A DNA stretch of 64,000 bases from positions 498,644-562,643 of the forward strand of contig BK006934.2 of NCBI GenBank assembly GCA_000146045.2, given 5' to 3'. Origin of the DNA: TPA_inf: Saccharomyces (lineage: Eukaryota). The notes beneath the pieces were generated by a model. That model saw only the letters and a list, made by a program, of their open reading frames with translations. It had not been told where the DNA came from and did no database searches. Positions within the stretch are counted from its first letter, which is position 1; each line of letters begins with the position of its first letter. Positions 10,157 to 45,320 of this stretch are shown piece by piece. Made by a program: the position numbers and the translations under genes.

Positions 10157-10184
10157 CAAAAAAAAAAAAAAAAAAAAAAAAAAA
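10157..10184. repeat. Poly(dA) tract of about 27 nt
   Basis: An uninterrupted A run in the MNL1-SCH9 intergenic region. Confidence 0.9.
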
Positions 10185-23121: not shown

Positions 23122-26054
23122 TTACTTATTGCAGTAACATAATGTACAATTGAGTTCCAGTACTTCGTAGTACATTCTGATTTTATATCTCAGAGCATCC
23201 AAGGTGTTTACGCATGAATAACCAAACCATGGAGGAGTTACTTTTACCTTTTTTTAAGATATTCAGCTAGTAACTAATTGTCGGAAAAACTTAACAGGTA
23301 CAAGGCCATATTATCACGTAACAAACCTAATTTTTGTACGATATTAGTGCCCGAGAATTTCTCCGTAGCGTAATTTTCTGCGAGAATTTCTGCGCAGTGC
23401 AAAGATATGCGACCTGACACTCTTTACGAAACTTTACCCCTCCCCCACCTCCACCTGCATTTATCCCGTCAAAAAGTGTCAATCACCTGGATGCATAAGG
23501 AGGAAAAATTATTCCAAGGATGTTGGACAACGCGAATTTTGGAAGTGACTTCTCATAAGCTTCTGATCTCTACTATATTCTTGTAATTTGGTGGGGTAGT
23601 GCAGGCTTACTGTGCGATGAGCAAATCCAGCGTATTGCTCACAGCGATAGGCCTTTGAAATGATATTGTTTGAATGCAAAACGCAGAAATGATATTCAAC
23701 TTCATAATCTCATTAAACAAGATAGCATGCCAATAGAATTCCATTTTTTCCGATTCTTAGGCCATTTACAACCAAGTATCAACTTTCGTATAATTTTATT
23801 TCCATAATTATACGCAAATGCTGCAGTAGTTGCACATAGAATGATGATACGACCTAATAAAGGAAAAGGGGAATCTGTTCTGAGCTGAAAACTGATTCAA
23901 AACTCAATTTGGACACTCGGTTCGGGTGCTGGCCAGCAATAGTTTAGTGTTATCATGTCATAATCTTCCTCATAGGTTTCAATGTAATATCGATAATTAC
24001 AAAGTAGTTCCTTTTCATTTAAATTTATATGCAAGAAGATAAGAGTTGATGTAGCAGTGCACCAGTTTTGCTTTACAATTCTTACAGTTTTATGAAAAAT
24101 AATCTCCAATATGCCATGCTGAACTGGCATTCTTTTTGAGTGCAAAAGGAGGTTTTGGAAAAACAAAGTCTTCTTCTGCGTGTTACTCTGAAAATGTTGA
24201 AAAATAAGCTGAATGGGGCATTACATGTTTTCATCCAAACATGCCTTGTCAATAACGAGATTCGCGACGTATTCTTTTAGTATTCTGTTCCTTTTTTTTT
24301 TTGCTCCGCGCGCACTTGAACATCTTGCATATTTTTCTTTTCTGTTTTCATCCAGAGGTTGTGTTCTAGGACTTTCTGACGGAGGAATATCATCAAATCA
24401 TCACAATAAGATCAATTGCATGGGTTCCAGCACTTAGCCAAATGTACAAATCTTGATATTTACCGGAGACCAACCCTTAGTTTGAAGTGTGCGCTACCAG
24501 GGAATCTTCTTCGGTCATTATTTTCTATCTTCACGATAATCGATCCTCCTCCTATACGTTAATATCGACTGATATCTAAATACATCGTTGAAGAACGGCG
24601 GAAAAATACTTATTTTCAGGTTGTCTTCGTTTTCACTCACGATAGCAATATGGATCCTTTCACAGCTCCTATCACCGCTGTAGTTTTTTATGACGCTTAA
24701 TTTCCTGTTAATAAGTAAATAAGGTAAGTTGAAGGTCCTTCATACTGTGATCTGCAATAAACCACATGGCTACCGCACTTCTTGTCACTATCCTATGTGG
24801 AGAAAACCCAGAAAAAACTTTAAAGCGTGATTGAAATCAATAATTTGGCAAAGAACTAGAACCATACGCAAGAAAACCTTCCAACTTTGGCATTGTACGC
24901 AGAAATGAGACACGTTCAAAGCACAGGTCTTGAAATTTAAAAAAGTTTCTCAAAAGTTCTCCCAAACCTTCAATTTCTATTGGTATAACAGTATTCTAGG
25001 AAGAAAACAGGCGAAGAAAGTTTCTTTACTTTCTTCCTTTAATAGACTTTCATGAATATCAAATGCTGTTGTTTTCAACTAAATCAGACAAGCAAAGGCG
25101 ATTGCTAAAAGTGAACATATGGAAAATATATGGAAAAAATCTAGAGGCAACAAACGTTCGGGTTTCCTTTTAACTCCGAGAAAGAAAAATCATTAGAACT
25201 TCGTGTTAATCCTAATAGAGTTCAAATATGCTACTAGTCGTCAGAAACCTCAGTTACATGATTACACATTCTAAGACTTCACAAGTGAAAAATTTCCCGA
25301 CGTTCATAGCATGTTACGTGATCGCGCAGGATGGGACAATTAAACGATCTTTGCAGTGGAGAAGGAATAACTTCCGGTTGCAGCTACTTGTCAAACAGAA
25401 CACTGGTATGGATAAGATAATAGTCAGATCTTTTATTACTTATGAAACAATGTCAGTAACACAGCGTGTTTAACAGATAATGTTCTTTTAACAAAATTAA
25501 ATGAGGTCTTTTATTGTGTGTGTCAAGTTGACAAGCCGCCTTTATTGATAGATCCCCACTAAAAATACCAGGAAATGATGAGCTCGAGTCTTTGTGCCTT
25601 TCTCATCATGGACCATTCGCACATGCAGTGCTGCACAACAAAAGATAAATCACCAGTATTAGGTGACTTTCAAAACACTAGAATTTAGGCACTTTCAACC
25701 CAGCCCAGCGCGTAGTAAGAATAAAGTAGGGGAAAACCTTACGAAAAGCCTCTTTCTTTTTTGTAAAAAATTCTGTTTTTAATAGCCAGTTCTTTAGTGA
25801 TTACAGGTAAGAGGGTTTCATATTTTAGAAGTGCAGCCATGATGAAGCACTTTTGCTCATTTATTGCGAGAAGTTTAATAAGTAGTATGGTTCCATTTTC
25901 AAGAATCGAGGCACTGTTCCTTCCCAACCTTGGAATCATACTCCGAAAGGATTTCAAGCCGATTTAAATTCACCTGGTAACTTTCCTACGGTTTGGCCCA
26001 AGGTGATTATAATTAACTTGCGGCTTGTTTTCAGCCTGCGATCGAACCTTTTTT

Positions 26055-26295
26055 ACGCAAAAAAACCTTATTAATTAAGGTTTTGAAAATTTTCTTCTTT
26101 CCGGGAGATTTTCATGTAGCCTCGAGCTTCTGGATTCTCACGGGATTATCTCGCGTTACATTTTTTACTTTCTTCTTTCTTTTTGACTTAGGATATACAG
26201 ATGATACGTCATTGTGTCATAAAACCCGCTGTTGTGCAACAAAAGGGAAAAAGAAAAATACTCCTTTTTAGGTCTTATAAATATTTTTAGCAGCC
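26055..26295 (+). promoter_or_regulatory. Conserved flocculin upstream block, copy A, at -695 to -455 of FLO5
   Basis: A ~220-bp block (AAAACCTTATTA...TTTCTTCTTTCCGGGAGATT...TACTCCTTTTTAGGTCTTATAAATATTTTT) with about 70-75% identical copies at 32980-33200 and 39335-39595. Confidence 0.55.
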
Positions 26296-26748
26296 ATCAA
26301 GTCCGGCTTTCAAACTTAATTTCACCCTTTTTCACGGCACCCTCGAGAATTACACTTTGGTTGCATGCAGGAGTACGCGAAATGCAGCATAAGCTACACA
26401 TCTATGCGTAGATCGCTTAACCTCTAAAGGCCGTAAACTTTTATTTTGTTTTGCGCTCATTAAAACCTAGTGGGAGCTGGTAGGAAATAAGCTAGTAGCT
26501 TCTATGGATAGAATGGAAATAAACGTAGGTGTAAACACTATTGGTAGAGAAGTTCCTCTGGTCAAATTTTCATGGGAGATACGTTAAATCTTTCACAGTC
26601 TTATCGTTTTGAATCACTGGACGGTTCTGGTATTCTGCTTCATATTTCGACAAGATAATAAATATAAAAAGAGCACCCTCATGATTTCTTGCTCTGCAGT
26701 AAATTCCGCAAATGATTTTCTTTAAATTGATTAGCACCACTAAAAAAA

Positions 26749-29700
26749 ATGACAATTGCACACCACTGCATATTTTTGGTAATCTTGGCCTTTCTGGCAC
26801 TAATTAATGTGGCCTCAGGAGCCACAGAGGCGTGCTTACCAGCAGGCCAGAGGAAAAGTGGGATGAATATAAATTTTTACCAGTATTCATTGAAAGATTC
26901 CTCCACATATTCGAATGCAGCATATATGGCTTATGGATATGCCTCAAAAACCAAACTAGGTTCTGTCGGAGGACAAACTGATATTTCGATTGATTATAAT
27001 ATTCCCTGTGTTAGTTCATCAGGCACATTTCCTTGTCCTCAAGAAGATTCCTATGGAAACTGGGGATGCAAAGGAATGGGTGCTTGTTCTAATAGTCAAG
27101 GAATTGCATACTGGAGTACTGATTTATTTGGTTTCTATACTACCCCAACAAACGTAACCCTAGAAATGACAGGTTATTTTTTACCACCACAGACGGGTTC
27201 TTACACGTTTTCTTTTGCAACAGTAGATGATTCTGCAATTTTATCAGTCGGTGGTAGCATTGCGTTCGAATGTTGTGCACAAGAACAACCTCCCATCACG
27301 TCGACTAACTTCACAATCAATGGTATCAAGCCATGGGATGGAAGTCTCCCTGACAATATCACAGGGACTGTCTACATGTATGCAGGCTACTATTATCCGC
27401 TGAAGGTTGTTTACTCCAATGCCGTTTCCTGGGGCACGCTTCCAATTAGCGTGGAATTGCCTGATGGTACTACTGTTAGTGATAACTTTGAAGGGTACGT
27501 TTACTCTTTTGACGATGACCTAAGTCAGTCAAATTGTACTATCCCTGATCCTTCAATACATACTACTAGCACTATCACAACTACCACCGAGCCATGGACC
27601 GGTACTTTCACTTCTACATCCACTGAGATGACCACCATCACCGATACTAACGGTCAATTAACTGATGAAACTGTCATTGTCATCAGAACTCCAACAACAG
27701 CTAGCACCATCACAACTACCACCGAGCCATGGACCGGTACTTTCACCTCTACATCCACTGAGATGACTACTGTCACCGGTACCAACGGTCAACCAACTGA
27801 CGAAACTGTTATTGTCATTAGAACTCCAACTAGTGAGGGTTTGATTACTACAACTACCGAACCATGGACCGGTACTTTCACCTCTACATCCACTGAGATG
27901 ACTACTGTGACCGGTACCAACGGTCAACCAACTGACGAAACTGTTATTGTCATTAGAACTCCAACTAGTGAGGGTTTGATTACTACAACTACCGAACCAT
28001 GGACCGGTACTTTCACCTCTACATCCACTGAGGTTACCACCATCACTGGTACCAACGGTCAACCAACTGACGAAACCGTGATTGTCATTAGAACTCCAAC
28101 TAGTGAGGGTTTGATTACTACAACTACCGAACCATGGACCGGTACTTTCACCTCTACATCTACTGAGATGACTACTGTCACCGGTACCAACGGTCAACCA
28201 ACTGACGAAACTGTTATTGTTATCAGAACTCCAACCAGTGAAGGTCTAATCAGCACCACCACTGAACCATGGACTGGTACTTTCACCTCTACATCTACTG
28301 AGGTTACCACCATCACTGGTACCAACGGTCAACCAACTGACGAAACCGTGATTGTCATTAGAACTCCAACTAGTGAGGGTTTGATTACTACAACTACCGA
28401 ACCATGGACCGGAACTTTCACCTCTACATCCACTGAGATGACTACTGTGACCGGTACCAACGGTCAACCAACTGACGAAACTGTTATTGTCATTAGAACT
28501 CCAACTAGTGAGGGTTTGATTACTAGAACTACCGAACCATGGACTGGTACTTTCACTTCTACATCTACTGAGGTTACCACCATCACCGGTACCAACGGTC
28601 AACCAACTGACGAAACTGTTATTGTCATCAGAACTCCAACTACTGCCATCTCATCCAGTTTGTCATCTTCTTCAGGACAAATCACCAGCTCTATCACGTC
28701 TTCGCGTCCAATTATTACCCCATTCTATCCTAGCAATGGAACTTCTGTGATTTCCTCCTCAGTAATTTCTTCTTCAGTCACTTCTTCTCTAGTCACCTCT
28801 TCTTCATTCATTTCTTCCTCTGTCATTTCTTCTTCTACAACAACCTCCACTTCTATATTCTCTGAATCATCTACATCATCCGTCATTCCAACCAGTAGTT
28901 CCACCTCTGGTTCTTCTGAGAGCAAAACGAGTTCGGCTAGTTCTTCCTCTTCTTCCTCTTCTATCTCTTCTGAATCACCAAAGTCTCCTACAAATTCTTC
29001 TTCATCATTACCACCTGTTACCAGTGCGACAACAGGCCAGGAAACTGCTTCTTCATTACCACCTGCTACCACTACAAAAACGAGCGAACAAACCACTTTG
29101 GTTACCGTGACATCCTGCGAATCTCATGTGTGTACTGAATCCATCTCCTCTGCTATTGTTTCCACGGCCACCGTTACTGTTAGCGGCGTCACAACAGAGT
29201 ATACCACGTGGTGCCCTATTTCTACCACAGAGACAACAAAGCAAACCAAGGGGACAACAGAGCAAACCAAGGGGACAACAGAGCAAACCACAGAAACAAC
29301 AAAACAAACCACAGTAGTTACAATTTCTTCTTGTGAATCTGACATATGCTCTAAGACTGCTTCTCCAGCCATTGTGTCTACAAGCACTGCTACTATTAAC
29401 GGCGTTACCACAGAATACACAACATGGTGTCCTATTTCCACCACAGAATCGAAGCAACAAACTACGCTAGTTACTGTTACTTCCTGCGAATCTGGTGTGT
29501 GTTCCGAAACTACTTCACCTGCCATTGTTTCGACGGCCACGGCTACTGTGAATGATGTTGTTACGGTCTATCCTACATGGAGACCACAGACTACGAATGA
29601 ACAGTCTGTCAGCTCTAAAATGAACAGTGCTACCAGTGAGACAACTACCAATACTGGGGCTGCTGAGACAAAAACAGCAGTCACCTCTTCACTTTCAAGA

Positions 29701-29976
29701 TTCAATCACGCTGAAACACAGACAGCTTCCGCGACCGATGTGATTGGTCACAGCAGTAGTGTTGTTTCTGTATCCGAAACTGGCAACACCATGAGTCTAA
29801 CAAGTTCCGGGTTGAGCACTATGTCGCAACAGCCTCGTAGCACACCAGCAAGTAGCATGGTAGGATCTAGTACAGCTTCTTTAGAAATTTCAACGTATGC
29901 TGGCAGTGCCAACAGCTTACTGGCCGGTAGTGGTTTAAGTGTCTTCATTGCGTCCTTATTGCTGGCAATTATTTAA
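26749..29976 (+). CDS. FLO5: Flo5 flocculin, a lectin-like GPI-anchored cell-wall adhesin (YHR211W)
   Basis: 1075 aa beginning [49 protein letters not shown]-terminal PA14 mannose-binding domain, eight 45-aa tandem repeats, a Ser-rich stalk, three Cys-containing C-terminal repeats (TVTSCESxVC...[12 protein letters not shown]) and a hydrophobic GPI signal ([15 protein letters not shown]). Confidence 0.92.
27565..28655 (+). repeat. FLO5: FLO5 internal tandem array of eight 135-bp (45-aa) units
   Basis: Eight near-identical units encoding ...[45 protein letters not shown]... Neighbouring units differ at only a few codons (EM/EV, TVTG/TITG). Confidence 0.9.
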
Positions 29977-32900
29977 TAAAATTCGCGTTCTTTTTACGTA
30001 TCTGTGTATCTTTTCTTTGCTAAATATACGCTGACATGAATTATTTTTTAACTGTTTCTTCTCCATACTTTCAAATATTCAAATTGAACTAAATGATAAT
30101 TCTTGCGCTTCCTATTTTGAAAAAGTAGATATGTGTATCATAAAGAAAACGTTACTATTATTGTCTTAGGCAACAAAAATCCATGAAAAGAATTTTACCG
30201 TTATCGATACCATTGTATTTATTTTATTTATTTATTTAATTTTTTTTTTTTTTGGTTTATATCCTGCAAACAACACTTCGAATTCAATTCGATATTTCAT
30301 AAGTTACAACTAACACTTATAGAAACCGATGTATGAGTACTTATTATTAACGAGGAAAAATGGCCTATTTTGTTTAGCAATTAATGAACCATCGCCAATT
30401 TTTGCTTTAACAATTATTGCCATTTTCAGTAGTACTAACGTAAGATCTAGTGTGGTTCGCTTAGGATGTTTTTGAGTAGAAATCTGCTTACATGCCACAC
30501 GCAGTACTTGAAACTTGAAATAATGGGGATAATTAGTTATTTAAAGTATGTGCTTGTTCTTTTATATTTATTTCGAATTCTTTTGCACTAGTATTTAAAA
30601 TATCAGCAGAGGCGTAAAAGTGCACCAAAATTATTGTAAAACTACTTGCCCTAAAATTGATACTTCATACTTGACATATTCAAAAGGGGTCCAAGTATAG
30701 ATGCATCAAAAAAAAAAAAAATTATCCGATGATGAGCAAATGGTAGCTTTTCGTTCCCCAGGAAGTGTAGTAGTTCCATGAAGTCTAATGAGACTTTGGA
30801 AAAAGGTTTGTCACGAGCACCGAACTACTGTATTTTGGAATTTTGATAAACTTCAAAACGGGAACGAAGTGTTAAACTTAGATGCGGTTGTTTTAAGCTT
30901 TAAAAGAGGAAAATAATGACTGGTGATAAGAAGTCAACAACGATTCAAAGCAGGTGAATTTCCATTACGTTTCGCTTTTCAATTGAAAAAAATTTGGTGG
31001 TTATTCGTTTCTTGCTTGACCTCTTCATTTTTTATACTTCTGTGATGAGAAGCAAGTTCGAGGATTTTACGATAAAGCCTACTGGTTATATTTGTATAAA
31101 TTAGAACGTTGTCCTTATTTCTCTTTTCGAACAGTATCAAAATAAAGTTTTTGATTAGGGCTAGATTCTCTTCAAGGAAGAGATACCTCACGTCTGTAAT
31201 ATCTAAGAGCTAATGTTTCGATCGAACTTTCCTTTGCTTTTTTTCTGGATCTCATAATGTCCCACTGTATGTATGTGCCCTCGCACAGCTTTGCTCATCA
31301 TAGACATTAATCATTGGTTGTATGATAAAAATATCGCAAGAATTATTCTAACGTTCAGATTAGATTCCAGCCATATTTCTGACATTTGTTTTATTAATAA
31401 AAATTTGGCGAATGTTTTGATAACTTGATAACTGCTGGTATTTCATTGTTGAAAAGGCATGATATTAGATGCACAAAGTATATTATAACTTATGATCAGA
31501 GATATAGGAACAAAAAAAAGGGAAAATTCATATCTATATGTGAAAATACCATTATTTCCTCTCCTGTTTAATATTCTGTCCTTAATTTTCATATTACATT
31601 ATCAACTTTTGCATTTCAGTGTCCATTAAATCTTGGGACCATTTTCTCAATCTTCATGTCGTCTTTTCACACCGTATATAATATACTGGTACTATAAGTA
31701 CTAGTCGATAGATCGCAGTTGAGTCTTATTCCAACAGTTAATGATTCACTGAGCTTTCTGTTGCTGTAGACTTTCTGAGGCATCGTCGCTCTCTTCTATG
31801 TGATGCTACAACGGAACTAGGCTTCTTATATATCGTGGTCCTACAAGATCTTGGTATCTCGTTTGCTTACTTTGAAGCTTCACTGATATATAGTATTTAA
31901 GCCACTTTTATGTTCATGGATAATCGTAATTGTACTACGCTGGTACCAGTTATGAACCCTATCAAATCATCATTGAACACTGCTATTTTTAACTAATCAA
32001 GATATGTATGCGGCGTACTTTATAATTTCACGACACTATTGAAAGCAAACTAAAAATCAAGTAAATACCTATCCAAGTTGCGGGCTCTGGATTTATGTGG
32101 CCTTAAATTTTCGACCTATGGTTCACTATTCAATACGAGAAAACCAAAATTAGGTACAAGTACTGATTGCGTTCGTGATTTGAAAAGCAGCGTTAAAAGA
32201 TTACAAGATTTTGCGTTTCCAGGCCGACACTTAACTTTAAGGTCTCGACTTGGTAACATGAGTTGCCAAAAGTTTTTTTCTCCTATCTGAATATGGGGAA
32301 CCGGAATCTGTCTTTGACCTGACTTTCAAATTGTTGCATATGTAAAAAAAAAACAGAAGAAATATTATCTTCTCCTTCTAGCGATGCAAAAGGATTCATT
32401 ACAAATCGTCGCAAAGGCTGACAAGTTGCAGTATATTCACATTGCTTATTTGAAGTACGTTTGTATACACATCGATAGTATTCATTAACACCACAACTGC
32501 TGTGTATACTATGTCAAACAGCACAATAAAGCCCGTCATTTTCGTACCCGCTCATTTCCAATAGGTATCTAAACTTACAAATGTGGTACACTACTTCGAA
32601 TTCATTAATCGATATTGAATGCTAAAAAGTCTGCGATTTCTTCCTCAACGTTCAAAAATCTCATCCAAGGCATAATCCCACATATTGAAGATCGCTACCA
32701 ATTGTTACAGGCGAACTGAAGTTTTGGAAATGAGCTTGTACTTAGTAAATTTCTCTTTGCTTGCATCTTTTTCTTCCATGCCAAAAAATAAAAGATACTC
32801 ATTTTAAAAACGCAGCCATATTGACTAAGTAAGTAATCATAATACTATGAGTAATTTTTGAGTACTGTGCTCATTTACTAGCTGCTTTTCTGAGAAAGAT

Positions 32901-32979
32901 CCTCGATAATCAATTCCAGGTTAGTGGGGCGCTTCTACGGCCTCTTCTAACCAATTGTTCCCCGTGAGTTGCTTTCTCT

Positions 32980-33200
32980 GAAAACCTTATTATACATTAG
33001 AGTTATAAGAAAATTTTCTTTTTCCCGTAGATTAACTTGCAGTGCCGAACTTCTAGATGTCACACCAGACCGTTTGACACCGCCATTTTCCTTCCTTTTC
33101 GGAAAAATGTGCCGATAAATGGTAAGACGCGACGCCACTGCTACGAATATTACGCTTATGATGAAGCAAAAGGAAAAAGCAAGTTCCCCTTAAATTCGTA
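32980..33200 (+). promoter_or_regulatory. Conserved flocculin upstream block, copy B, orphan
   Basis: Homologous to 26055-26295 and 39335-39595 (TTTCTTTTTCCCGTAGATTAACTTGCAGTGCC...GATGAAGCAAAAGGAAAAAGCAAGTTCCCCT). It lies 3 kb downstream of FLO5 and about 600 bp upstream of the decayed flocculin relic. Confidence 0.5.
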
Positions 33201-33789
33201 TAACTGTTTCATCAATCTTTAGTTCTGGCATTTGAAAGTTAATTAAACTTTTCTTCGTGGTTTCTACAGGAGTTCTGCATGTGCGTAATTCAAAGCCTGT
33301 GAAGGAAAAAGTATTGTCCTAAACAACGGTCGTAGAATACGTCAACTGTAGTTTAAAATATTTTCTGGCTCTACTCGGTGCGATAGGTCTGGCTCTTTTC
33401 TATTTACTTTTGTTTGGAGTTGTTGAGGCCGATACCCGTCTAGATGTAAATATGAAATAACAGTTCGAGGTTTTATTACGAGAATGAAAAGGGTAATGGA
33501 TTGGAGCATGTGTAAATGTCAATAGCAGAAAAAATTTACCGCAAATTGTTTCGTAGTCTTATCTTCATCGGACACTCAAGGGTTGCATAATTTTTACCCA
33601 AAGGAACAGTATACTTTTTTGATAAAAAAATCTTGTTACCTATACAGTATTGCAAGCATTTTCAGAAACTCGTCTTTTGAGTTCTAAATGCATCATACAA
33701 CAACAACAACAATTTCTTATTACTGTGTCCTTTTGGGATTTTTCAGCCTTCCTAGCTTACCCAAAATAGCCTCTCAAGGTGAAAAAACC

Positions 33790-34530
33790 ATGCCTGCAAG
33801 CGGATCTAAGGATGAGTAGCTAGATTACAATAAATCCTGAATTTTCTCTGAGTGTCAACTTTGTCATCGCTTGTTAAAGGGCTACTACGCTGAAAAAGAA
33901 CCTGAACTCTGTTAATAGGTTGAAGATTTTATGACTTGGTATACTATTCCATACGGCTGCTCTCCTGATTGCGGTGGGTCATTGCTATAACAGTAAAATC
34001 AAGGAAGATAACAGGAAGAGTAACTTTAGTACAATAAATCTGTTGTCTCCCGAGGATTATAATTGTTCGGCTTTCACACTAAGTTGAAAAGGGGGACTCA
34101 GGAAATGACAGGGTACGTTTTAGTTTCTCCAAATAAATCTTCCACACCCAGCTTCAATGTGGTAAACGGAGGAAAGTTGATTAATTGATGTTGGCACTTA
34201 TATTTAACTGATGTAGAGAAGAACAACATACTACTAACGTCACAGTCAATTGTGCCAGTTTTCCAATCAAGTATTTCGAGATAATGTAAAAGTAATTGAT
34301 ATATGTTCGTACTGGTTTCCCAATTTCCGGGAAAAACTATGTACATGGGTGCAATTCCTTGTGGTTATTTCCTTTTAGGTTATATTGCCAACCACATCAT
34401 AGTACTATTTGCGGTCACTTCAGAAGATATGTTTGCTCCTTTGATCATGATATAGACCAGGCCAACTGTACCGCTTCAGGCTTCAAAGCATTAGGAATAA
34501 GCACCACTATTACACAACCATAGAGCTACT
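33790..34530 (+). pseudogene. Highly decayed relic of a flocculin N-terminal (PA14) region
   Basis: The 75-aa ORF at 34296-34523 translates ...FRRYVCSFDHDIDQANCTASGFKALGISTTITQP. This aligns with FLO5 ...[36 protein letters not shown], the PA14-domain end through the start of the first repeat, at about 70% DNA identity over 34420-34530. Weaker similarity to the FLO start region (CATGCCTGC...GTCAACTTT) appears around 33800-33880. Multiple stops and frameshifts. Span and spacing mirror the FLO5 ATG-to-repeat distance. Confidence 0.5.
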
Positions 34531-37500
34531 CTTACTGTCACGTAGGTAAAACACTTGCTACTACACACACTCGTAGTGACTCATCTGACTATATTGCCGG
34601 TTGTTAAGAGGCACCAGTTAAGCACGCCATCAAGGGTACCGAATAATCTCTTCTGTATCAAGTATTCTACCTTTATGTCTGACCCACGTATTATGTGGAG
34701 CAATTACGTATTTTTCTCATATCAGCTTTGTTTTTACTCAACTTTGATATCTTAGAGAAACAGATCTTGATGTTACAGCAAGGTCAGGAAAATATTTTGA
34801 CAAAAACATACTAGTTTCATCCTTAGTAGTTGATTCTATGAATGCTGTACTTGAAAATATTGTTCATAAAATCCATAAGTTTTACCAACGGTATAATATC
34901 CTGCTATTAAATCTGCAATTGCTTTTGCGAAAAGAAGGAAAACATGCAAAACAAAAGCAAAAAAAAATTGGCACCCCAATTTCTTATAATATAATAATAT
35001 AACGGAAGTACACCATGCTTTCAATAATAAGATGTTTCCTGAAAAGGGCAACTATCTGACTAGTTCAGAGCCATGCAAAAGTTAAGGATGAAAATGCCAA
35101 ATAAGAAGATATTACGGAGTACATTCATTTCAAAAAGAAGAATGTATACTGCTTAGATAAGAAGATCAAGTTTTTATATTTCCGACCAAATAAGCCATCG
35201 AAAACTTTTGATGCACCAAACACCGTTCTTGAGAGCCAAGCACAGATGCAATTGTTCTGCCCTTCTTCCAAATTATGAATTGTGCATCATATCGTAAGGC
35301 CAGCCACATAAAAAAAAGGAGCAAAAAACTCAGTATACAGGCGAATATCCATCATACAGTCTAGCTGCCCTCACTACTTCCAAAAAAATGGGCTAGTGTT
35401 GTACGGTTTATGCCATATATCTAGAGTTAGCATAACTATGCACTACCGCTTTTCGAACAAAAAGTTTGCGAAACCTAGTTCATTGAATATGACTTACCCA
35501 AAATGGATACCAAGATCCTAATAATAAAGTCAATAACTTGAATTTTAGGTGCCATTATTTCCAACAATCATTATAGGCTAACTCTACCAGCAGACTAGAA
35601 TACCGTTCTTCTAGTTGAGCACATGGTCAAAATAGTCAATAAAAAACGCCCAGAAATGGCTGTAAATTAGTGTTTGTAGTACACAAAATAATTTCCTAAT
35701 TCCTTCCAAATGGGGTTTTCAAAAAGCTGACTCACGTAATTGATCAATACTTCACTAAAGAAGAATCATATGAATAAAACTAAAATCAACACTAACTGAG
35801 AGACTTAGCGGCCAAAGCTTAATCATCATTACATAGAGTATATGAAGGGAGTAAGTGAATATGCAAGGGTGGGAAACGGCAAAGCATTTTTATGCAAAAA
35901 GCGTATTTACAAATCCCGTAAACTCATGATGTGAATTTTGTAACCAGCTTTAGCTGAGATTATTTCTTTTGCAAAAGAAATATTCAATAAATTAACAATT
36001 TTCAAATAAATTACCAATCAATGGTCGATAACTTGCAAGAGAGATATCATCATTTGGCTTTTGTGATAAATTTACAAAACGTAATGTTGTATCGAGATAT
36101 ATTGAGTTACAAGTTTTCGTCTCTTTTTCCGAAGCGCCAGACTCCCGTATAAAAAATAAGGTTTATAGCGGGCATTATGCGTAGATCAGGACTTAAATTT
36201 TTCATTGCAGAAGTCCAATTTCAGACTCAGTATGGTTTGTTGTAGTGCTGGTGTAAAAGATGGTGTTATTACTTAAGACTGATTTGGTTGCTCAGGTATT
36301 TCATTCAATAAAATTGTGAAAGAGAACCTGGAATATAGAATGGAAATATATATCCTGCTACTAACCCCAATGGAAGGTGACGATCACTTCTTGTGCGTTC
36401 CAATCCCAGTTTTTGAATGTGCGAGTGGAAAAATTCTAGAGGAACAAATTGATATTTTCAAATCAGAATTCATCAAATATATGTACTCTGTAAAAACCAA
36501 GGATGTGATGAAGTTGAGATATTGTCTTTATGGGAAATTGACTTCTTTGTTTAATATGAATAATGCAATTTTACTCCTCAGCTCAAGTAGTGTAAAGATT
36601 CAGTAGCCGTCATCAAATAGACTAAAAATTAAAAAATAAGATTCAATGTGGTATGATAATGATAGATGAGAAGAAATTGCAAGAAAACGAATAAATACCT
36701 TGTCTCTTTGCACTGAATATCTTAAAGGACATACAGTCGCAATAACGTCTACTCATTGGTGTGTGTCAAAAACAGTACGTTTATTATCTGGACAGCCAAA
36801 AAATAAGATCTATTCAAACATGGAATATAGCGTATTTTTATTTAATCACGGTACAATGGAGATATTTGCATGCCTATAGAAACAAGTAATAGTTATCATA
36901 TTATTTTCTAGATTTTGTCACTGAACTTTTCCACTAATGAATCCTATCAAAATTATATATCCAATATGGCTGCATTCCCAACTAAATATTAAAATGCCGC
37001 TAAGTATAAAATGTCTCCGCATCGGTAAAAAGCATTACAAATGCGTATTATACTAGCGAGAAAAAAGTATAAGTATCAATGCCAATCACCCTCTGACCAT
37101 AAACTTTCTAAACATGAATAATAAAGGTGTTGAGAGTTATTATCCTAATTGATCAATTAATTTGAAGCAAAGTTATTATGTTAAAGAAAAAGGGATGTCA
37201 CAATCCTAACTATAATTTTTGCACTATACTCTGTAGGCGTACAAAATGGTTTGTACCGACTATATTCTCTTTATTTTTGACAATCCTTTACGATATATGA
37301 TTAAGAATACCATGTTATTTTTATGAAAATCTGTGATTTTTTTGTTTTCATACACTTTTTATTTTTGTCACGTAGTGCACTTTGATTAATACAAAAAAAA
37401 ATGCTGCAAAAGCATCGACTACATAAATTCATTAGGACGCATTCCTCATTACCACCTGGGTCTAATTTTTATTTTGAAATTGATATTATTCTTTATATGA

Positions 37501-39334
37501 TGAGGTAAAAAGCATTATATTCGTTGTAAACTCATATACTTATCCTCATTTTAGGCACCATCAGGGACTAAGGGCTAAAGTATCAGAGCCGCATTTCAAC
37601 AGTGTACAGAGATTTTAGAAACATTATCACGCACTGCCTTTTGCTTTGTTTACCCGTAATGAGTATACAGTGGATTTTCTGGTGCTAAAGCATATTGCCC
37701 TTTCGGCAATACTTGATGCCCTAAACATTTTCATCCTGGAACATACGAGTAAGAGCACATTTATGTGCCTATATTCCTCGTTTTTTACTGGTGCTGAATT
37801 TCTTATTTTCCACAGATAACAATCATGTTAATAAATTATGCACTGTGCTAATTTTTCAATTAAGGTTCTATTACCCCTCTATCACCGACAGAAACACGTA
37901 ATGATGTGTTATTTCCATTATAATTCCGTAAGAATGGTGTTTATAGGTAGTCTAAAGAACGTGCATCAGAGAAGAATGACTGTCGCAAAAAATGACTATT
38001 CTTTACCTTTTCAAACTTAACTGAGATAGTTATCTCTATTATTACCAGTGGCACACACGCGAACTACATCACTCACCACTATCGTCTTAGGAACTCAAGA
38101 TTTTATAGTAATGCAGCCGAAGACATTCAAGTCCTGAGAGAAAATGTAGACATTTTAAGAAAAGTACCGGAAATAAAGCACATGTAAAGCATTGAGCTCT
38201 GTACTCTATAAAAATTAGCTGCATTCAAACAACAATGTTTGAAATTTTTGCAAAAGTTATTGAAAAAGATTGCTGTTTTCAGCCTTGTTCAGATCATGTC
38301 TCAAAAATGAGAAACTGGAACTCTCATAATCAGTACCTCGTATTTTTTTTTCCTTATAGTTTCGTTATTAAAAATTTTTTTGCTGCTAATTTAAGTACGC
38401 TTTTGGTCATAAATGCTACCCACCAGTTGAATTATTGACATGATTAAAATACATTTCAGAACTTTACGGATTAAAAACTTTAAAGAACCTTTCAATCCAT
38501 GTTGCTGGAGGGCCATGAATCCACGAATTACAGCAAAAGAAGACAGTAACTACTTAGGGTTCAATAATTACTTGCATAAACACACACTAACAACCAAATC
38601 GTACTAAAATTTGCAATTAACAAAACTCCATCATATCACGCTGAATTATGTAGGGCTTCTTAATGCAATAGGTTGCCTGAATTTTGCTTACTCGTGCTGC
38701 CGGGAACACTTAGCAGTTGGGAGGCCGTTTCTCCCATATATTTCATAATTTTCTGTCCTTCTTAGAGTAGGATGCTGAAAATCAAAAGAAGACCGTCAAT
38801 AGGACCAGATTTTGTGGGTCAATTTTGGGCCAGACACATGATACCCTAGGAAGTTTAACGGTATACAACTCAAGGACGAGGAGTATTCGGAAACTACCGG
38901 TTTTTAACAAGCTGCAAATTTCCAGTAGCTGTTTTGGTTGCGACTACGGATAAAAATTCATACTTTAGGAAGTGAAGCAAGATAAAAAATCATGCTGCAT
39001 CCTAATTCGTGAAGTTTGTTAGGAATATTATTGTAAACAAGGAACCGTTTCAGTAAACTTGCTCTCTACTCTTCTAAGCTGTAATTTAAAAAAAGCGATA
39101 AAACAATGATTTTGATTATCTGCAACTTCTGGAAACTCGAGATACTACGCTAGACGAGATACCTATTAATTGTTTTCCTAAAAAATCAGGAACAGTTCCT
39201 GGCAGCTTTCGGCTCCTTCTTGTTCTGGAAAGGATCTTCAAATCCGCTTCCACGTAGCAGTCCTCGCTACGACTTCTTCTGAAGTATTTTGATTTTTGGC
39301 TGCATTTACCTTTTATTGCCGAAAATCTTATTTT

Positions 39335-39595
39335 CCAAGAAAAAAGCTTATTTTGCATTAAGTTTAAAAAATTTCTTCTTTCCCGTAGATTGACTTGCAG
39401 CGTCAAAATTCCGGAGGCCTCACGAGATTTTTTGACATCGGTTTTTGACATCTCTTTTTCCTTCCTTTTTCTTTCTTTTCCTGCGCACGCCGATAAAGAA
39501 GTAGTACAACAGACAACGTCAAAATGATCCTCTTGTGATGAAGCAAAAGAGGAAGAGTATACTCCTTTTCCGCTTGTACAAATATTTTTTTTGAT
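39335..39595 (+). promoter_or_regulatory. Conserved flocculin upstream block, copy C, at about -760 to -500 of the YHR213W-B/YHR213W pseudogene
   Basis: TTTCTTCTTTCCCGTAGATTGACTTGCAGCGTC...GATGAAGCAAAAGAGGAAGAGTATACTCCTTTTCCGCTTGTACAAATATTTTT, homologous to copies A and B. A dubious minus-strand ORF (39116-39610, YHR212C-like) overlaps it. Confidence 0.5.
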
Positions 39596-40098
39596 AATAA
39601 AATTTGGCACTTCAGAGCTTATCGTATCTTCTCCCGGAGTTCCTCAAGACTTATACTTCAGCCCGTTTAGGAATGCATAAAAGCAAATAGGATTCGTTAC
39701 AACTGCTGCAGGACTCTTTAGGACTGCATCAAGGTAAGCCTCGCTGCACCTAAACGCAAAATGTGGTTGTAACCTTTTTAATTTTTTTCTTGAACTTGTT
39801 GAGTCGTAATAAATCGTTTCTGGGAAGTGGAAGGTAATAATGTAATGGAATCGGCGTTACTCGCATGTGCAGATATCAGCGACAAAAAGTGTTGTAGGGA
39901 CGTTTCGATACCAAAATTTCCTAAATACAGCGCAGGAACATCACTACGCTAAACAAATCGTAGCGCATACATCTGATCGAAAAAAGACAGTTCCCAAAAC
40001 AATGACATATGAAGAGACCAGCATCAAAATTTTCATCATTAACAGCATGGCTAAAAGTTATTGTTTAATATACCCATACCTGATTGACGAACCAAGAA

Positions 40099-41280
40099 AT
40101 GCCTTATCACTATTTATTTTTGGCACTCTTCACCTACCTGGCCACGTCCAATGTTGTTTCAGGAAGTACACAAGCATGCCTGCCAGTGGGCCCGAGGAAA
40201 AATGGGATGAATGTCAACTTTTATAAATACTCATTACTGGATTCAACAACGTATTCCTACCCGCAATATATGACTTCTGGATATGCCTCGAATTGGAATT
40301 AGGTTCCGTTGGCGGACAGACGGATTTCTCAATTGACTACGATCTTTCTTGTGTTATCTCTTCAGGAACTTTTAAATGTGCTCAATCAGATGCTTATGGA
40401 AACTGGGGATGCAGAGGTCATAGTGAATGTTCAAAATAGCCAAGAAAGACCTATTGGAGTACTGATTTACTTGGTTTCTTACTATCCCAAAAAACGCTAC
40501 TCTAGAAATGACAGGTTACTTTTTACCACCACAAACAAGTTCTTACACGTTCAGGTTTGCTAAGGTCGATGACTCTGCAATTCTATCAGTCGGTGGTAAC
40601 GTTGCGTTCGAATGTTGTGCACAAGAACAACCTCCAATTACATCGACGGATTTTACAATCAATGGTATTAAGCCATGGCAAGGAAGTTTGCCTGATAACA
40701 TCGGAGGGACTGTCTACATGTATGCAGGCTACTATTATCCGCTGAAGGTTGTTTACTCCAATGCCGTTTCCTGGGGCACGCTTCCAATTAGCGTGGAATT
40801 GCCTGATGGTACTACTGTTAGTGATGACTTTGAAGGGTACGTTTACTCTTTTGACGATGATTTAAGTCAGTCAAATTGTACTATCCCTGATCCTTCAAAA
40901 CATACTACTAGCATCGTCACAACTACTACCGAACTGTGGACTGGTACTTTTACTTCTACATCTACTGAAATGACCACCGTCACCGGTACTAATGGTCAAC
41001 CAACTGACGAAACCGTTATTGTTGCCAAAGCTCCAACCACTGCCACCTCATCCAGTTTGTCATCATCTTCTTCAGAACAAATCACCAGCTCTATCACGTC
41101 TTAGCATCCAATTATTACTCCATTCTATCGCAGCAATGGAACTTCTGTAGTTTCTTCCTCAGTCATGTCTTCCTCGGTCATTTCTTCTTCTGCAACGACC
41201 TCCACTTCTACATTCTCTGAATCATCTAAATCATCCGTCATTCAAACCAGTAGTTCCACCTCTGGTTCTTCTGAGAGCGA
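40099..41280 (+). pseudogene. Flocculin pseudogene; the YHR213W-B (40099-40302) and YHR213W (40508-41104) fragments belong to one disrupted FLO-like gene
   Basis: A 67-codon piece MPYHYLFLALFTYLATSNVVSGSTQACLPVGPRKNGMNVNFYKYSL... ends at TAG. Homology then continues out of frame (40309-40563), and 40508-41104 encodes the PA14 remainder plus exactly one 45-aa repeat unit ([46 protein letters not shown]). A TAG interrupts the Ser-rich stalk at 41102, and similarity runs on to about 41280 before it is lost. Confidence 0.85.
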
Positions 41281-42600
41281 AACAATCTTAGTGATTGCTG
41301 GCATGTCATTAGCGACAAGACGCTTATTACCGTAGTAGCCCCCCAAGGCAAACATCTCTTTATCAGTAATATCCAAAGCTGTTCAACTTCTCGAATTGGC
41401 CCAGGAAAAGAGCATTGGGGCGGCAACTAACTCTGGCATACTTACAGTTTCTGCTCTTGACAGCGCTAAAAAAGGGCTTGTTTTGTAATGCCCGGTTCGC
41501 AATTCTACAAGTACCACGCACTAGCTGCTAAAAGTGTCTAACCTTGCGAACAACTCTGGACTTTCTTATGAGAATCCCATCGTCAAGAAACAAAATTATA
41601 CAGACAGGCGTAAATGTAGCTCGTAAGCGCCTGATCAAGTAAGCCAAATGCGCTAACTTGAGGAAATATAGCCATCTAAATCTCTGCAACATGCCAATTC
41701 GCACGTGACTTGAAACTATGGAAAGTGTCTAGAAGATTACCAAGAACCACGTTATTTGAGAGAGGATGGCAAGGTGACGACAATCACACCAAGACCACAT
41801 TTTGGGTGCGCCTGGAAGCAAGACCTGAGAAACTGGGCCAAAATATTCAAACCAAGCATAAGATAGTTGGAGGTAGGAATACACTATCTAATCTGTGCTG
41901 ATGAAATGCTGGCGAAAACGGGCGATGTAGTGGTACAGAAGGTGCCGGTTATCCGTTTGTCCGTTTTTCTTCATTTTTTTTTTGTTTTTCCCTTTTGTCT
42001 TTTGCACCGCTTATATATGGGTATGAAACAAGTTCAAGAATTTATAATGGAACCCAAAGGTTCAGTCTTTGTAGTTCGAGCGACATTGCGCGTTTCCTTA
42101 GAAAACGCTGGAAAGATATTCTTTAACGAGACGGAGTAATTCTCGTCAGGAATAGGATGTTGATTGATTTTTGCTGTAGTTATATAGCAGGGACCCACGG
42201 AAGAGAGCGAGCGCCTTCTTTCACAGGGACTTTTGTCAGCCACGTCTCCGCGGAAAACAATTGCCGTCCGCGTCGCAGTGAGATTACGCAGCCGTGCGCT
42301 TCAGGGACAGAAAAGAAGCATTTCGCGGCTACGGAGAAACAGTGCACTAACTCTCTCGAGGGTAGCCGCAAAGATTTCTTGTCTCTTCCATTAGGACATA
42401 GCTATCTTTTTCTTTTCTGTTTTTGGCGTATGATCTGTTCTGAGCCAAAGTTATAGAACATTGCTTGAATAAGCACCTCACAGAGTAGGGATTGTATAGA
42501 AAGTAGCTGAGCGTCTGCCCACGTAACAAACAATCTTGCCCCTTCCCCGCTCTTGTTTTCGCGTGCCTCTTCTACAATAATCTGGCCAGGCTAAATCGCG

Positions 42601-42645
42601 TTCTGCTGCTGCTGCTGCTATTGTTATTGTTGTTGTTGTTGTTTT
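42601..42645. repeat. Compound trinucleotide repeat (CTG)5 (TTG/TTA)n
   Basis: ctgctgctgctgctgctattgttattgttgttgttgttgtt, intergenic and about 360 bp upstream of YHR214W. Confidence 0.9.
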
Positions 42646-43007
42646 GGCCAATTGCTTATGTGTTGGTCTGCAAATTAGCACCTCGTTCCCTGTTGGCAAA
42701 CGCGCGCGTACAAGCCTTACAGGGCTTGAGAATGTTCTTCGTAGAAATGCATGCACAAAAATTTTGATCTAGCACACCATCGGTCTCTGTAGCTTCGGGC
42801 TCTATAGCTATGGGTTAGGAGTCCGTGAGTAGTAACAAGAAGAAGTATATAAAAAGCAGGTAAATCGTACTTCAATATGCTTCATTGTCACTGGATCGTC
42901 ATATTCACTCTTGTTCTCATAATAGCAGTCCAAGTTTTCATCTTTGCAAGCTTTACTATTTCTTTCTTTTTATTGGTAAACTCTCGCCCATTACAAAAAA
43001 AAAAGAG

Positions 43008-43619
43008 ATGTTCAATCGTTTTAACAAATTCCAAGCTGCTGTCGCTTTGGCCCTACTCTCTCGCGGCGCTCTCGGTGACTCTTACACCAATAGCACCTCC
43101 TCCGCAGACTTGAGTTCTATCACTTCCGTCTCGTCAGCTAGTGCAAGTGCCACCGCTTCCGACTCACTTTCTTCCAGTGACGGTACCGTTTATTTGCCAT
43201 CCACAACAATTAGCGGTGATCTCACAGTTACTGGTAAAGTAATTGCAACCGAGGCCGTGGAAGTCGCTGCCGGTGGTAAGTTGACTTTACTTGACGGTGA
43301 AAAATACGTCTTCTCATCTGATCTAAAAGTTCACGGTGATTTGGTTGTCGAAAAGTCTGAAGCAAGCTACGAAGGTACCGCCTTCGACGTTTCTGGTGAG
43401 ACTTTTGAAGTTTCCGGTAACTTCAGTGCTGAAGAAACTGGCGCTGTCTCCGCATCTATCTATTCATTCACACCTAGCTCGTTCAAGAGCAGCGGTGACA
43501 TTTCTTTGAGTTTGTCAAAGGCCAAGAAGGGTGAAGTCACCTTTTCTCCATACTCTAACGCTGGTACCTTTTCTTTGTCAAATGCTATTCTCAACGGTGG
43601 TTCTGTTTCCGGTTTGTAA
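43008..43619 (+). CDS. YHR214W, the N-terminal 203-aa product of a putative GPI cell-wall protein gene
   Basis: ATG at 43008, MFNRFNKFQAAVALALLSRGALG signal peptide, a Ser-rich region, then TAA at 43617. Confidence 0.75.
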   Translation: MFNRFNKFQAAVALALLSRGALGDSYTNSTSSADLSSITSVSSASASATASDSLSSSDGTVYLPSTTISGDLTVTGKVIATEAVEVAAGGKLTLLDGEKYVFSSDLKVHGDLVVEKSEASYEGTAFDVSGETFEVSGNFSAEETGAVSASIYSFTPSSFKSSGDISLSLSKAKKGEVTFSPYSNAGTFSLSNAILNGGSVSGL

Positions 43620-44903: not shown

Positions 44904-44966
44904 AATGAGTGCGTAACCGTACTTTCCTAAAAATAACTAAGTAGAAAGTATTTTAATATATAAACG

Positions 44967-45298: not shown

Positions 45299-45320
45299 TA
45301 CCACCCATAATGTAATAGAT

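Follow-up and report, generated by a model that had tools for sequence, protein, structure and literature searches.

A tandem array of one intact and two degenerate flocculin units on the right arm of Saccharomyces cerevisiae chromosome VIII

On the right arm of chromosome VIII of Saccharomyces cerevisiae, the intact flocculin gene FLO5 (unit 1) is followed on the same strand by an ancient, decayed flocculin relic (unit 2, U2) and a recently broken flocculin pseudogene (unit 3, U3) (Table 1). The window that we analyzed is a stretch of 64,000 nucleotides, and its positions are converted into chromosome VIII coordinates by adding 498643. All three units proposed in the first-pass annotation were found at their positions on the plus strand by ORF calls, tblastn, nhmmer and a profile HMM of an upstream block. 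Its description of head-to-tail units, each with a FLO promoter and an N-terminal domain but in very unequal states of decay, is supported by the tblastn, nhmmer and HMM searches. However, the similarity is not confined to a block of ~220 bp, as had been thought: according to nhmmer, the DNA common to the three units is one continuous, collinear stretch of about 1.6-1.7 kb that covers the promoter and the sugar-binding N-terminal PA14 domain. Despons et al. (2010, PMC2822764) speak of a tandem array where paralogues are found side by side in the same direction and no more than one spacer gene separates them; here, all units are on the plus strand within 15 kb, and the intervals contain nothing but relics and dubious small ORFs. 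We consider it very probable that this is a subtelomeric tandem flocculin array evolving by birth and death, whose units have had different fates. As such it is an ordinary subtelomeric gene array, and its parts have already been largely catalogued.

Table 1. Features of the flocculin array, in window positions
Feature	Position	Strand	Basis
FLO5 promoter segment, homologous to the U2 and U3 promoters	25900-26748	+	nhmmer, block HMM, alignments
Unit 1, intact FLO5 (YHR211W), 1075 aa	26749-29976	+	ORF call, Pfam
Old solo Ty1-type LTR (delta) remnant, FLO5-U2 spacer	31421-31736	+	identity to Ty1 LTRs
Unit 2, heavily decayed relic, promoter and coding part	about 32886-34600	+	nhmmer, tblastn, HMM
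U2 promoter relic, block at 32983-33181	32886-33705	+	nhmmer, block HMM, repeat families D9 and D10
U2 coding relic, Flo5 aa ~1-290 (signal peptide to PA14 end)	33706-34600	+	tblastn, shuffles, HMM, codon asymmetry
Unit 3, pseudogene YHR212W-A/YHR213W including promoter	39180-41299	+	nhmmer, blastn, look-up
YHR212C (identical to YAR060C), 111-aa ORF antisense across the U3 promoter block	39116-39451	-	ORF, exact look-up
U3 promoter, block at 39344-39558	39180-40098	+	nhmmer, block HMM
U3 pseudogene coding part, YHR212W-A and YHR213W	40099-41299	+	blastn, look-up, Pfam, indels
YHR212W-A (also YAR061W), Flo5 aa 1-67	40099-40302	+	exact-sequence look-up
YHR213W, C-terminal part of PA14 and one flocculin repeat	40508-41104	+	look-up, Pfam
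YHR213W-B, separate ORF without flocculin similarity	42157-42456		exact-sequence look-up

Several lines of evidence identify U2 as a flocculin remnant. Firstly, tblastn with the Flo5 N-domain aligned residues 126-166 with 34063-34185 (30.4 bits) and residues 238-264 with 34392-34472 (33.9 bits), and gave a weak signal-peptide match at 33712-33810; these matches are on the plus strand, collinear and correctly spaced, though in different frames, and 14 different flocculin N-domains yielded the same ones. Secondly, an HMM of flocculin N-domains recovered 34389-34574 (E 1e-6) and 34057-34167 (E 1e-3) from six-frame translations. Thirdly, nhmmer aligned U2 with FLO5 in a single piece (32980-34542 with 26061-27618, E 9e-29) and also with U3 (32886-34593 with 39221-41012, E 8e-42). 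Furthermore, a semi-global alignment scan had its maximum exactly at U2 (score 430, versus 105-170 for every other segment or strand), and the identity between U2 and functional FLO genes is about 0.56 at codon positions 1 and 2 and about 0.44 at position 3, an asymmetry which argues for coding ancestry. Thus, the two properties on which the first-pass annotation had made its middle unit depend, collinear similarity beyond the short blocks and significant similarity to the flocculin PA14 domain, are both present. A chance match or compositional artefact is practically out of the question: although the single protein matches are short (27-41 aa) and just 41-48% identical, and the Pfam models PA14 (PF07691) and GLEYA (PF10528) are silent in all frames (no match at E<=10 in the forward frames of 33700-34560, which we attribute to the advanced decay and frameshift fragmentation of U2), it is ruled out by scores that beat every one of 200 shuffles by >7 bits (best shuffle, 23.1 bits), by the collinearity and right spacing of the three protein matches, by the unbroken DNA alignment (E 1e-28 to 1e-42) that takes in the promoter too, by the single peak of the alignment score at the U2 position and strand, and by the codon-position periodicity; in addition, the chromosome I twin of U2 was called independently by others (PMC2876123).

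According to Lafontaine et al. and Despons et al., a gene relic retains homology to a paralogue, with a load of stops, frameshifts and missense changes that leaves no ORF. This is what is seen in U2, which is about 52% identical to FLO5 at the nucleotide level, has stops in every frame and contains no plus-strand ORF of at least 100 aa within 33700-34600. No FLO5 homology was found in U2 past residue ~290, and neither flocculin repeats nor a C-terminus were found 3' of the relic. Judged by its sequence, U2 is a relic of a flocculin member and not itself a member.

The FLO5 ORF contains the Pfam domains PA14, GLEYA, Flocculin (eight copies) and Flocculin_t3 (three copies). Its homology with U3 includes the promoter (nhmmer, 25900-27701 with 39180-41040), amounts to 81.5% identity over 932 nt in blastn, and stops at 41283-41299. 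The name YHR213W-B had been given to U3 by mistake: exact look-up shows that the ORF at 40099 is YHR212W-A/YAR061W, and hence that U3 corresponds to YHR212W-A/YHR213W. Relative to the FLO5 coding sequence, U3 lacks one nucleotide at nt 198 and another at nt 389; it has a single 135-nt repeat, and its 3' end is missing. Both frameshifts are common to the U3 copies on chromosome VIII and the left arm of chromosome I (chrI-L), and are absent from U3 of S. paradoxus, which bears other lesions; U3 broke after the split from S. paradoxus and before the three-locus duplication. Over the first 327 nt, FLO5 and U3 have a third-position identity of 0.53-0.57, the level observed between FLO5 and S. eubayanus; it climbs to 1.00 at nt 655-763. 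U3 is a conversion mosaic with FLO5, in which the 3' part of the N-domain has been converted to 97-100% identity. In strain CPG_1a, chromosome VIII jumps from window position 28240 to 40919, so that U2 is deleted and a 518-aa FLO5/YHR213W fusion is formed.

The comparison with chromosome I bears out the proposal that the array predates the duplication shared by its right arm (chrI-R) and that of chromosome VIII. The chrI-R copy is collinear and 99.6-99.8% identical over the whole of 29116-44967, and the layout recurs in the more diverged chrI-L (FLO9) copy, which is 93-97% identical (96.6% and 93.1%). Since the array is also present at these two loci, it is older than the duplications that connect them. 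On chrI-R, an orphan fourth FLO promoter fragment is located 4.2-4.9 kb upstream of FLO1 (L016 5091-5773), and in some strains a wholly different sequence follows FLO1 (L016). S. paradoxus keeps the layout of the array from the U2-U3 spacer onward; the locus compared begins about 400 bp downstream of the expected end of U2, so that U2 was seen in S. cerevisiae only. The syntenic chrI-R locus of S. eubayanus has a single FLO gene and no relic, and only a promoter fragment was found on the right arm of S. kudriavzevii chromosome VIII; therefore, U2 is judged ancient from its divergence, not from its occurrence in distant species. U2 is equidistant from FLO5, U3, two S. eubayanus FLO genes and one S. 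uvarum FLO gene (51-53% identity, JC 0.74-0.81), whereas the neutral identity between S. cerevisiae and S. paradoxus in the spacer adjoining U2 is 71-74%. Because of this difference, we infer that the U2 branch is several-fold older than the cerevisiae-paradoxus split. The identity of about 50% to every FLO N-domain tested suggests that U2 was inactivated near the base of the genus, a rough dating, as such identities are near the alignment noise floor and the distances are saturated (JC about 0.76).

The birth-and-death history probably proceeded as follows. An ancestral FLO gene with about 0.8 kb of promoter would have reached three copies in the same orientation, of which FLO5 would have remained functional. 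U2 would have lost its function very early, at about the depth of the genus Saccharomyces; neutral decay would have brought it down to about 50% identity, the whole part 3' of PA14 would have disappeared, and what is left would now be inert DNA. U3 would have been a gene until after the split of S. paradoxus; its two frameshifts and the loss of its 3' end would have occurred in the lineage of S. cerevisiae, and it would still exchange sequence with FLO5. In some strains, recombination between FLO5 and U3 via the 135-nt flocculin repeat would have deleted U2 and generated the short fusion flocculin. Later, the entire array would have been transferred by block duplication between this locus and the FLO1 and FLO9 loci of chromosome I, in one direction or the other.

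How the three copies arose is a separate matter, on which the spacers have a bearing. At nhmmer sensitivity, no similarity was detected between the spacers 29977-32880 and 34600-39180, nor between either of them and the 3' half of FLO5 with its flank. The delta remnant shares 71% identity with each of the two LTRs of the complete Ty1 element (44967-50994), and two relics located here are listed in Table S1 of Lafontaine and Dujon (2010, PMC2876123): the YAL064W-like SACE0Hp2 (chrVIII 530758-531077 C; window 32115-32434, minus strand) and, between U2 and U3, the DIA1 (YMR316W)-like SACE0Hp3 (chrVIII 533659-534529 W; window 35016-35886, plus strand). Within 35016-35886, stops occur throughout all three frames and the Pfam scan was empty. 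Of the ancestral triplication with subsequent differential decay that had been proposed, the three units and their unequal decay stand, but the triplication of a single ~7 kb unit is unproven, and the similar spacings of 7 kb and 6.4 kb, taken as a sign of a repeated unit, have no spacer homology behind them. For the same reason, the copies may have come from local tandem duplication or from ectopic exchange.

On the one hand, one clean ancestral triplication into units of equal make-up, 6.4-7 kb each (gene, promoter and spacer), followed by decay only, would account for the common orientation of the units, the similar start-to-start distances between their blocks (6923 and 6358 nt) and the roughly equal distances between the three promoters (pairwise identity 40-66%); the coding regions are not equidistant, which we ascribe to conversion, so that the coding similarity of U3 is no obstacle. 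We nevertheless consider it unlikely. Apart from the absence of spacer homology, which neutral decay could have erased, unit 1 consists of a 3.2 kb gene and a 3 kb spacer, whereas unit 2 consists of a 0.9-kb coding stub and relics reported to derive from unrelated genes; the homology has unequal 5' limits (25900/39180 for FLO5-U3, 32886/39221 for U2-U3 and 26061/32980 for FLO5-U2); and S. eubayanus has a single copy. On the other hand, the array may be a patchwork, assembled by ectopic (non-allelic) recombination among FLO-bearing subtelomeres. The unrelated spacers with their reported DIA1-like and YAL064W-like relics (PMC2876123) and old LTR, the orphan promoter fragment upstream of FLO1, the different sequence after FLO1 in some strains, and the demonstrable mobility of the region between chromosome ends would fit such an origin. 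It is rendered improbable, however, by the close adjacency of the units on the same strand, which is the signature of tandem duplication, and by the block-level layout kept at three loci and, from the U2-U3 spacer, in S. paradoxus; moreover, no donor locus has been identified.

Within the FLO promoter, the upstream block is just the segment that evolves most slowly. Its profile HMM matches exactly three sites in the window, 26062-26254 and the U2 and U3 blocks, with E-values from 4e-43 to 9e-58 (U2, 7e-52; U3, 9e-58), while plain BLAST picks up no more than its initial 75-100 nt (74-76% identity); the block is also partly conserved in a FLO promoter of S. eubayanus (L015). In FLO1, a ~100-bp DNase I hypersensitive site bound by Cyc8-Tup1 is located at about -700 (Fleming et al. 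2014, PMC4316177). The FLO5 block extends from -687 to -495 relative to the ATG, with its strongest part at -689 to -602; in comparison with the FLO1 site, it is found at about -690 to -600 in FLO5 and at about -740 to -630 in a FLO1 promoter (L016), its well-conserved part is likewise about 100 nt, and it is conserved among FLO promoters. By its position, the block may thus correspond to this site. ChIP or DNase reads from the array would map both to chrI-R and to chromosome VIII. We regard as very improbable the more far-reaching idea that the U2 block still recruits Cyc8-Tup1, that the units derive from one triplication at the base of the genus, and that the relic acts as a putative chromatin-organising or silencing waypoint in the 15-kb array. 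If this were true, the seemingly higher conservation of the U2 block (73-76% identity, compared with about 50% in the rest) would be a trace of remaining constraint, and the relic would not be inert.

Much of this array has been described before. Despons et al. (2010, PMC2822764) list FLO5 and YHR213W as tandem gene array no. 67 (chrVIII 525392-528619 and 539151-539747), and FLO1 and YAR062W as no. 49. Array 67 is the same locus (window 26749-29976 and 40508-41104) and embodies the same birth-and-death concept with a degenerate copy; their list, however, consists of annotated CDS and pseudogene members only, and has no entry for U2. Lafontaine and Dujon (2010, PMC2876123) report in Table S1 the FLO1-like pseudogenes SACE0Ap9 (chrI 212096-212535 W) and SACE0Ap6 (chrI 19572-20030 C). 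Measured from the FLO1 stop, SACE0Ap9 occupies nt 4089-4528 downstream, and the equal offset from the FLO5 stop is 34065-34504, amid the U2 matches (34057-34574). This matching offset, together with the near-identity of chrI-R and chromosome VIII, indicates that SACE0Ap9 is a paralogous copy of the same relic; SACE0Ap6, which matches L011 3855-4444, is its equivalent at the FLO9 locus on chrI-L. The claim that the middle unit had not been annotated as a FLO remnant therefore holds for the chromosome VIII copy in that catalogue, where SACE0Hp2 and SACE0Hp3 alone are listed in the interval, but not for its chromosome I twins. Their chromosome I entries are ~440-nt coding traces and include neither the conserved block nor the promoter relic of ~820 nt. 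The array itself is already known, and the chromosome VIII copy of U2 alone is missing from the catalogue of Lafontaine and Dujon. U3 is one of the classical FLO pseudogenes YAL065C, YAR061W/YAR062W and YHR213W (Teunissen and Steensma 1995, as cited in PMC5345705), which are each telomere-proximal to a functional gene, FLO9, FLO1 and FLO5; to this our analysis adds the dating of the U3 lesions, the mosaic that conversion has produced between U3 and FLO5, and a FLO5 x YHR213W fusion allele that occurs naturally. A database record named 'FLO1/YAR062W fusion protein' also exists.

The first-pass annotation had described three flocculin-like units in a row on the forward strand, each preceded by a copy of the same short upstream block. 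This observation was correct, and its interpretation was right in outline, in that three units with promoter and N-domain homology were found: the intact FLO5, a strongly decayed middle relic and a pseudogene. An exact-sequence look-up identified the ORFs around FLO5 as genes of S. cerevisiae S288C, and corrected the name of the third unit, which is YHR212W-A/YHR213W and not YHR213W-B/YHR213W. Published coordinates were converted by subtracting 498643 from the chromosome VIII position, based on FLO5 (chrVIII 525392-528619) and YHR213W (chrVIII 539151-539747; PMC2822764 supplement).

Features of the flocculin array and its surroundings (window positions)
Feature	Position	Strand	Remarks
Upstream block of FLO5 (profile match)	26062-26254		
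FLO5 ORF	26749-29976	+	1075 aa; PA14/GLEYA domain, eight flocculin repeats, three type-3 repeats
Solo Ty1-type LTR, old	31421-31736		FLO5-relic spacer; 71% identical to full Ty1 LTRs
Upstream block of the relic (profile match)	32983-33181		
Upstream block of the pseudogene (profile match)	39344-39558		
YHR212C	39116-39451	-	identical to YAR060C; exact-sequence look-up
YHR212W-A	40099-40302		identical to YAR061W; exact-sequence look-up
YHR213W	40508-41104		exact-sequence look-up
YHR213W-A	41906-42139		exact-sequence look-up
YHR213W-B	42157-42456		exact-sequence look-up
YHR214W	43008-43619		identical to YAR066W; exact-sequence look-up
Full Ty1	44967-50994		LTRs 44967-45298 and 50663-50994, 99.7% identical to each other

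Several independent tests agree that the middle relic is real. Firstly, a tblastn search with Flo5 residues 1-290 matched 34063-34185 and 34392-34472 on the forward strand in different frames, at a spacing of 329 nt versus 336 nt in Flo5, with scores of 30.4 and 33.9 bits, respectively, whereas none of 200 shuffles scored above 23.1; the same search gave a weak signal-peptide match at 33712-33810. Secondly, a flocculin-specific HMM recovered both places (E 1e-6 and 1e-3), and these segments are also matched by fourteen other flocculin N-domains. Thirdly, nhmmer aligned the relic in one piece both with FLO5 (32980-34542 with 26061-27618, E 9e-29) and with the pseudogene (32886-34593 with 39221-41012, E 8e-42), and a sliding semi-global alignment gave its sole peak at the position and on the strand of the relic (430 versus a background of 105-170). 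Finally, identity to functional FLO genes is ~0.56 at codon positions 1 and 2 and ~0.44 at position 3, an asymmetry that reads as the trace of a once protein-coding sequence aligned to partners under constraint. The first-pass annotation had stated beforehand that the relic would fall if similarity were limited to the short blocks or if tblastn detected none; because the above tests were positive, the relic survived on both counts, with collinear similarity that exceeds the blocks. A permissive-score Smith-Waterman alignment was set aside because its scoring was in the linear phase and it spanned the entire input. Pfam gave no match to the relic in any of its three forward frames; general Pfam profiles are too insensitive for relics this decayed.

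The relic ends where the flocculin repeats would start (Flo5 residue ~290), and the repeats, the stalk and the GPI signal are all absent from it. None of the 14 flocculin N-domains is clearly nearer to it than the others, and it can therefore not be assigned to the FLO1/5/9, FLO10 or Lg-FLO sublineage. It is equidistant, at 51-53% identity (JC nucleotide distance 0.74-0.81), from FLO5, the pseudogene, two S. eubayanus FLO genes and an S. uvarum FLO gene. FLO5 and S. eubayanus share 76% identity, and between S. cerevisiae and S. paradoxus the identity of the neutral spacer adjoining the relic is 71-74%. Judged from these distances, the branch of the relic would be several times the cerevisiae-paradoxus depth, or roughly genus-deep, a dating that is highly uncertain, as the distances are saturated and subtelomeres evolve fast. 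We infer that the relic is also present in S. paradoxus, in which the locus examined starts ~400 bp past its expected end.

The upstream block is indeed shared by the three units and forms a repeat family of three copies, which lie 6923 and 6358 nt apart. All three pairings gave BLAST matches of 75-100 nt with 74-76% identity (E 2e-6 to 5e-13), and a block profile of 207 positions has exactly three matches in the 64 kb. The shared DNA is not confined to the block, however: it is a continuous promoter plus N-domain unit of 1.6-1.7 kb, of which the block is the best-preserved part. The well-conserved portion spans -689 to -602 relative to the ATG in FLO5, the block lies at about -740 to -630 in a FLO1 promoter, and a FLO promoter of S. 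eubayanus keeps parts of it. It has been reported that, at about -700, FLO1 has one DNase I hypersensitive site of ~100 bp, which coincides with a Cyc8-Tup1 peak (Fleming et al. 2014, PMC4316177), and the block putatively corresponds to this element. Constraint in the functional partners would explain why, of the whole relic, the block is the easiest to recognise, and because this -700 block is what the relic has preserved best, the relic helps to define which core of FLO promoters evolves most slowly. The relic's own copy is 73-76% identical over ~100 nt, as against a neutral expectation of ~60% (about +3 SD), but this excess is not convincing since the block was the top one among roughly 17 windows. 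An orphan fourth FLO promoter copy with the block lies on the right arm of chromosome I of strain AVN (L016 5091-5773), 4.2-4.9 kb upstream of the FLO1 ATG; it matches the pseudogene promoter (39204-39900) with 113 bits, is not followed by FLO coding sequence, and has no equivalent upstream of FLO5 in the window.

The pseudogene is readily recognised, with FLO5 blastn matches of 26771-27701 to 40115-41043 (81.5% over 932 nt) and of 28528-28928 to 40925-41283. It comprises the promoter, the whole N-domain, one 135-nt repeat and ~360 nt of post-repeat sequence, with its end at ~41299. Two 1-nt deletions, at FLO5 coding nt 198 and 389, disrupt the N-domain, and these frameshifts are common to the copies on chromosome VIII and the left arm of chromosome I. 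The S. paradoxus counterpart (L017 4966-7581, CBS432, right arm of chromosome I) carries different disabling lesions and still has a FLO 3' end with the C-terminus and GPI signal (L017 6868-7581), which S. cerevisiae lacks, ~1.3 kb being missing at ~41299. Based on the distribution of the lesions, the unit lost its function within the S. cerevisiae lineage, prior to its spread to three loci. The stretch 44081-45081 was considered as the displaced 3' end, given a weak nhmmer match to FLO5 29136-30187 (E 8e-6), and was ruled out: its protein likeness is merely compositional (Ser/Thr-rich plus 'TVTSC..C', E 0.17). The comparison with FLO5 (26749-27620 versus 40093-40965) reveals a mosaic. With 40-66% identity, the promoters are as diverged as the promoter of the old relic; at third positions, identity over the first 327 coding nt is 0.53-0.57, which does not exceed that between FLO5 and S. 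eubayanus, and it reaches 1.00 at nt 655-763. Such a pattern bears the signature of gene conversion, by which the 3' part of the N-domain of an old copy was homogenised recently.

A natural recombinant between the two was found on chromosome VIII of strain CPG_1a, which is collinear with the window to 28240, inside the FLO5 repeats, and resumes at 40919, in the pseudogene repeat. This FLO5 x YHR213W recombination via the 135-nt flocculin repeat (L019 10001-11557) deleted ~12.7 kb including the relic and generated an in-frame fusion flocculin of 518 aa; the strain also lacks the full Ty1. A chromosome I counterpart is present in the databases as 'FLO1/YAR062W fusion protein'. Thus, the pseudogene is an active recombination partner, as has been proposed for pseudogenes in the literature on FLO variability (PMC8621652), and the recombinant lends support to the accepted view that adhesin variation can draw on FLO pseudogenes as a reservoir.

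The three copies differ greatly in the time of inactivation, FLO5 being intact, and the array is a local example of the different fates of duplicates: one has been retained, another became a pseudogene recently and still undergoes gene conversion, and the third decayed long ago. The proposal of an ancestral triplication followed by differential decay holds in outline for the array and its decay states, but the data do not establish that the copies stem from one clean triplication. No match to each other, or to the 3' half and flank of FLO5, was found for the spacers (29977-32880 and 34600-39180), and because nothing aligns outside the units, their similar spacings carry little weight. The first spacer contains the solo LTR, with no tRNA gene nearby. 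A YAL064W-like relic at 32115-32434 on the reverse strand and a DIA1 (YMR316W)-like relic at 35016-35886 have been reported from the first and the second spacer, respectively (Lafontaine & Dujon 2010, PMC2876123); in the DIA1-like region, all frames contain stops throughout and Pfam found nothing in the three forward ones.

Ten loci retrieved with the YHR212C protein, from the right arm of chromosome I or chromosome VIII of other strains, are 99.6-99.97% identical to 29116-44967 without rearrangement. A locus on the left arm of chromosome I (L011) is also collinear, at 96.6% (30135-38069) and 93.1% (38325-44970), and has both the relic (2756-4467) and the pseudogene (8793-10902). The FLO-relic-pseudogene layout is thus common to the FLO1, FLO5 and FLO9 loci and is older than the segmental duplications from which these loci arose, which answers the question whether the array preceded the duplication of the segment shared with chromosome I. 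In S. eubayanus, the order on the right arm of chromosome I is SWH1, one FLO gene, an amidohydrolase gene, a short-chain dehydrogenase (SDR) gene (the latter two at 13993-17459 of L012/L013) and the YAR066W orthologue; tblastn found no trace of the amidohydrolase or SDR in the window. In the S. kudriavzevii subgenome of VIN7, only 4.9 kb separate the YHR210C and YHR214W orthologues on the right arm of chromosome VIII (L018 5064-10001); this interval includes a fragment of a FLO promoter (7222-7803) but lacks FLO coding sequence, and the whole array is absent or collapsed. No additional relics were detected by DNA and protein profiles in the loci of S. eubayanus, S. kudriavzevii and strain AVN. 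In one strain, a YAR060C-containing block is present in inverted orientation at both ends of chromosome I (CANCCP010000001.1), which points to a recent subtelomeric exchange between its arms.

Much of this array was already known. The FLO pseudogenes YAL065C, YAR061W/62W and YHR213W are cited in PMC5345705 as known since 1995, and FLO5+YHR213W and FLO1+YAR062W have been published as tandem gene arrays (PMC2822764). Furthermore, Lafontaine & Dujon (2010, PMC2876123) listed FLO1-like pseudogenes at chrI 212096-212535 and 19572-20030. The former lies 4089-4528 nt past the FLO1 stop, and applying this offset to the FLO5 stop leads to 34065-34504, the position of the relic. The middle unit, taken as unannotated in the first-pass annotation, is therefore missing from this catalogue only as a chromosome VIII entry, whereas its chromosome I twins, one of them near-identical, are included. 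Annotators could add the relic at chrVIII about 531,529-533,243. The significance is small: a further degenerate copy is documented for a subtelomeric adhesin family that has been studied extensively, and the array is an ordinary subtelomeric birth-and-death array, already essentially described.

Two further observations concern neighbouring ORFs; no tRNA genes or Rfam families were found within 23-45 kb of the window. The YHR212C/YAR060C ORF runs antisense over the conserved promoter block of the pseudogene, and is probably a chance ORF inside a FLO promoter rather than a gene. At 43008-44903, YHR214W (203 aa) and YHR214W-A (161 aa, in a different frame) resemble pieces of one gene. Many other S. 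cerevisiae strains, as well as S. paradoxus, S. uvarum and S. eubayanus, have a single Hyphal_reg_CWP (PF11765) cell-wall protein of 615-638 aa at this place, and the S288C allele appears to be broken.
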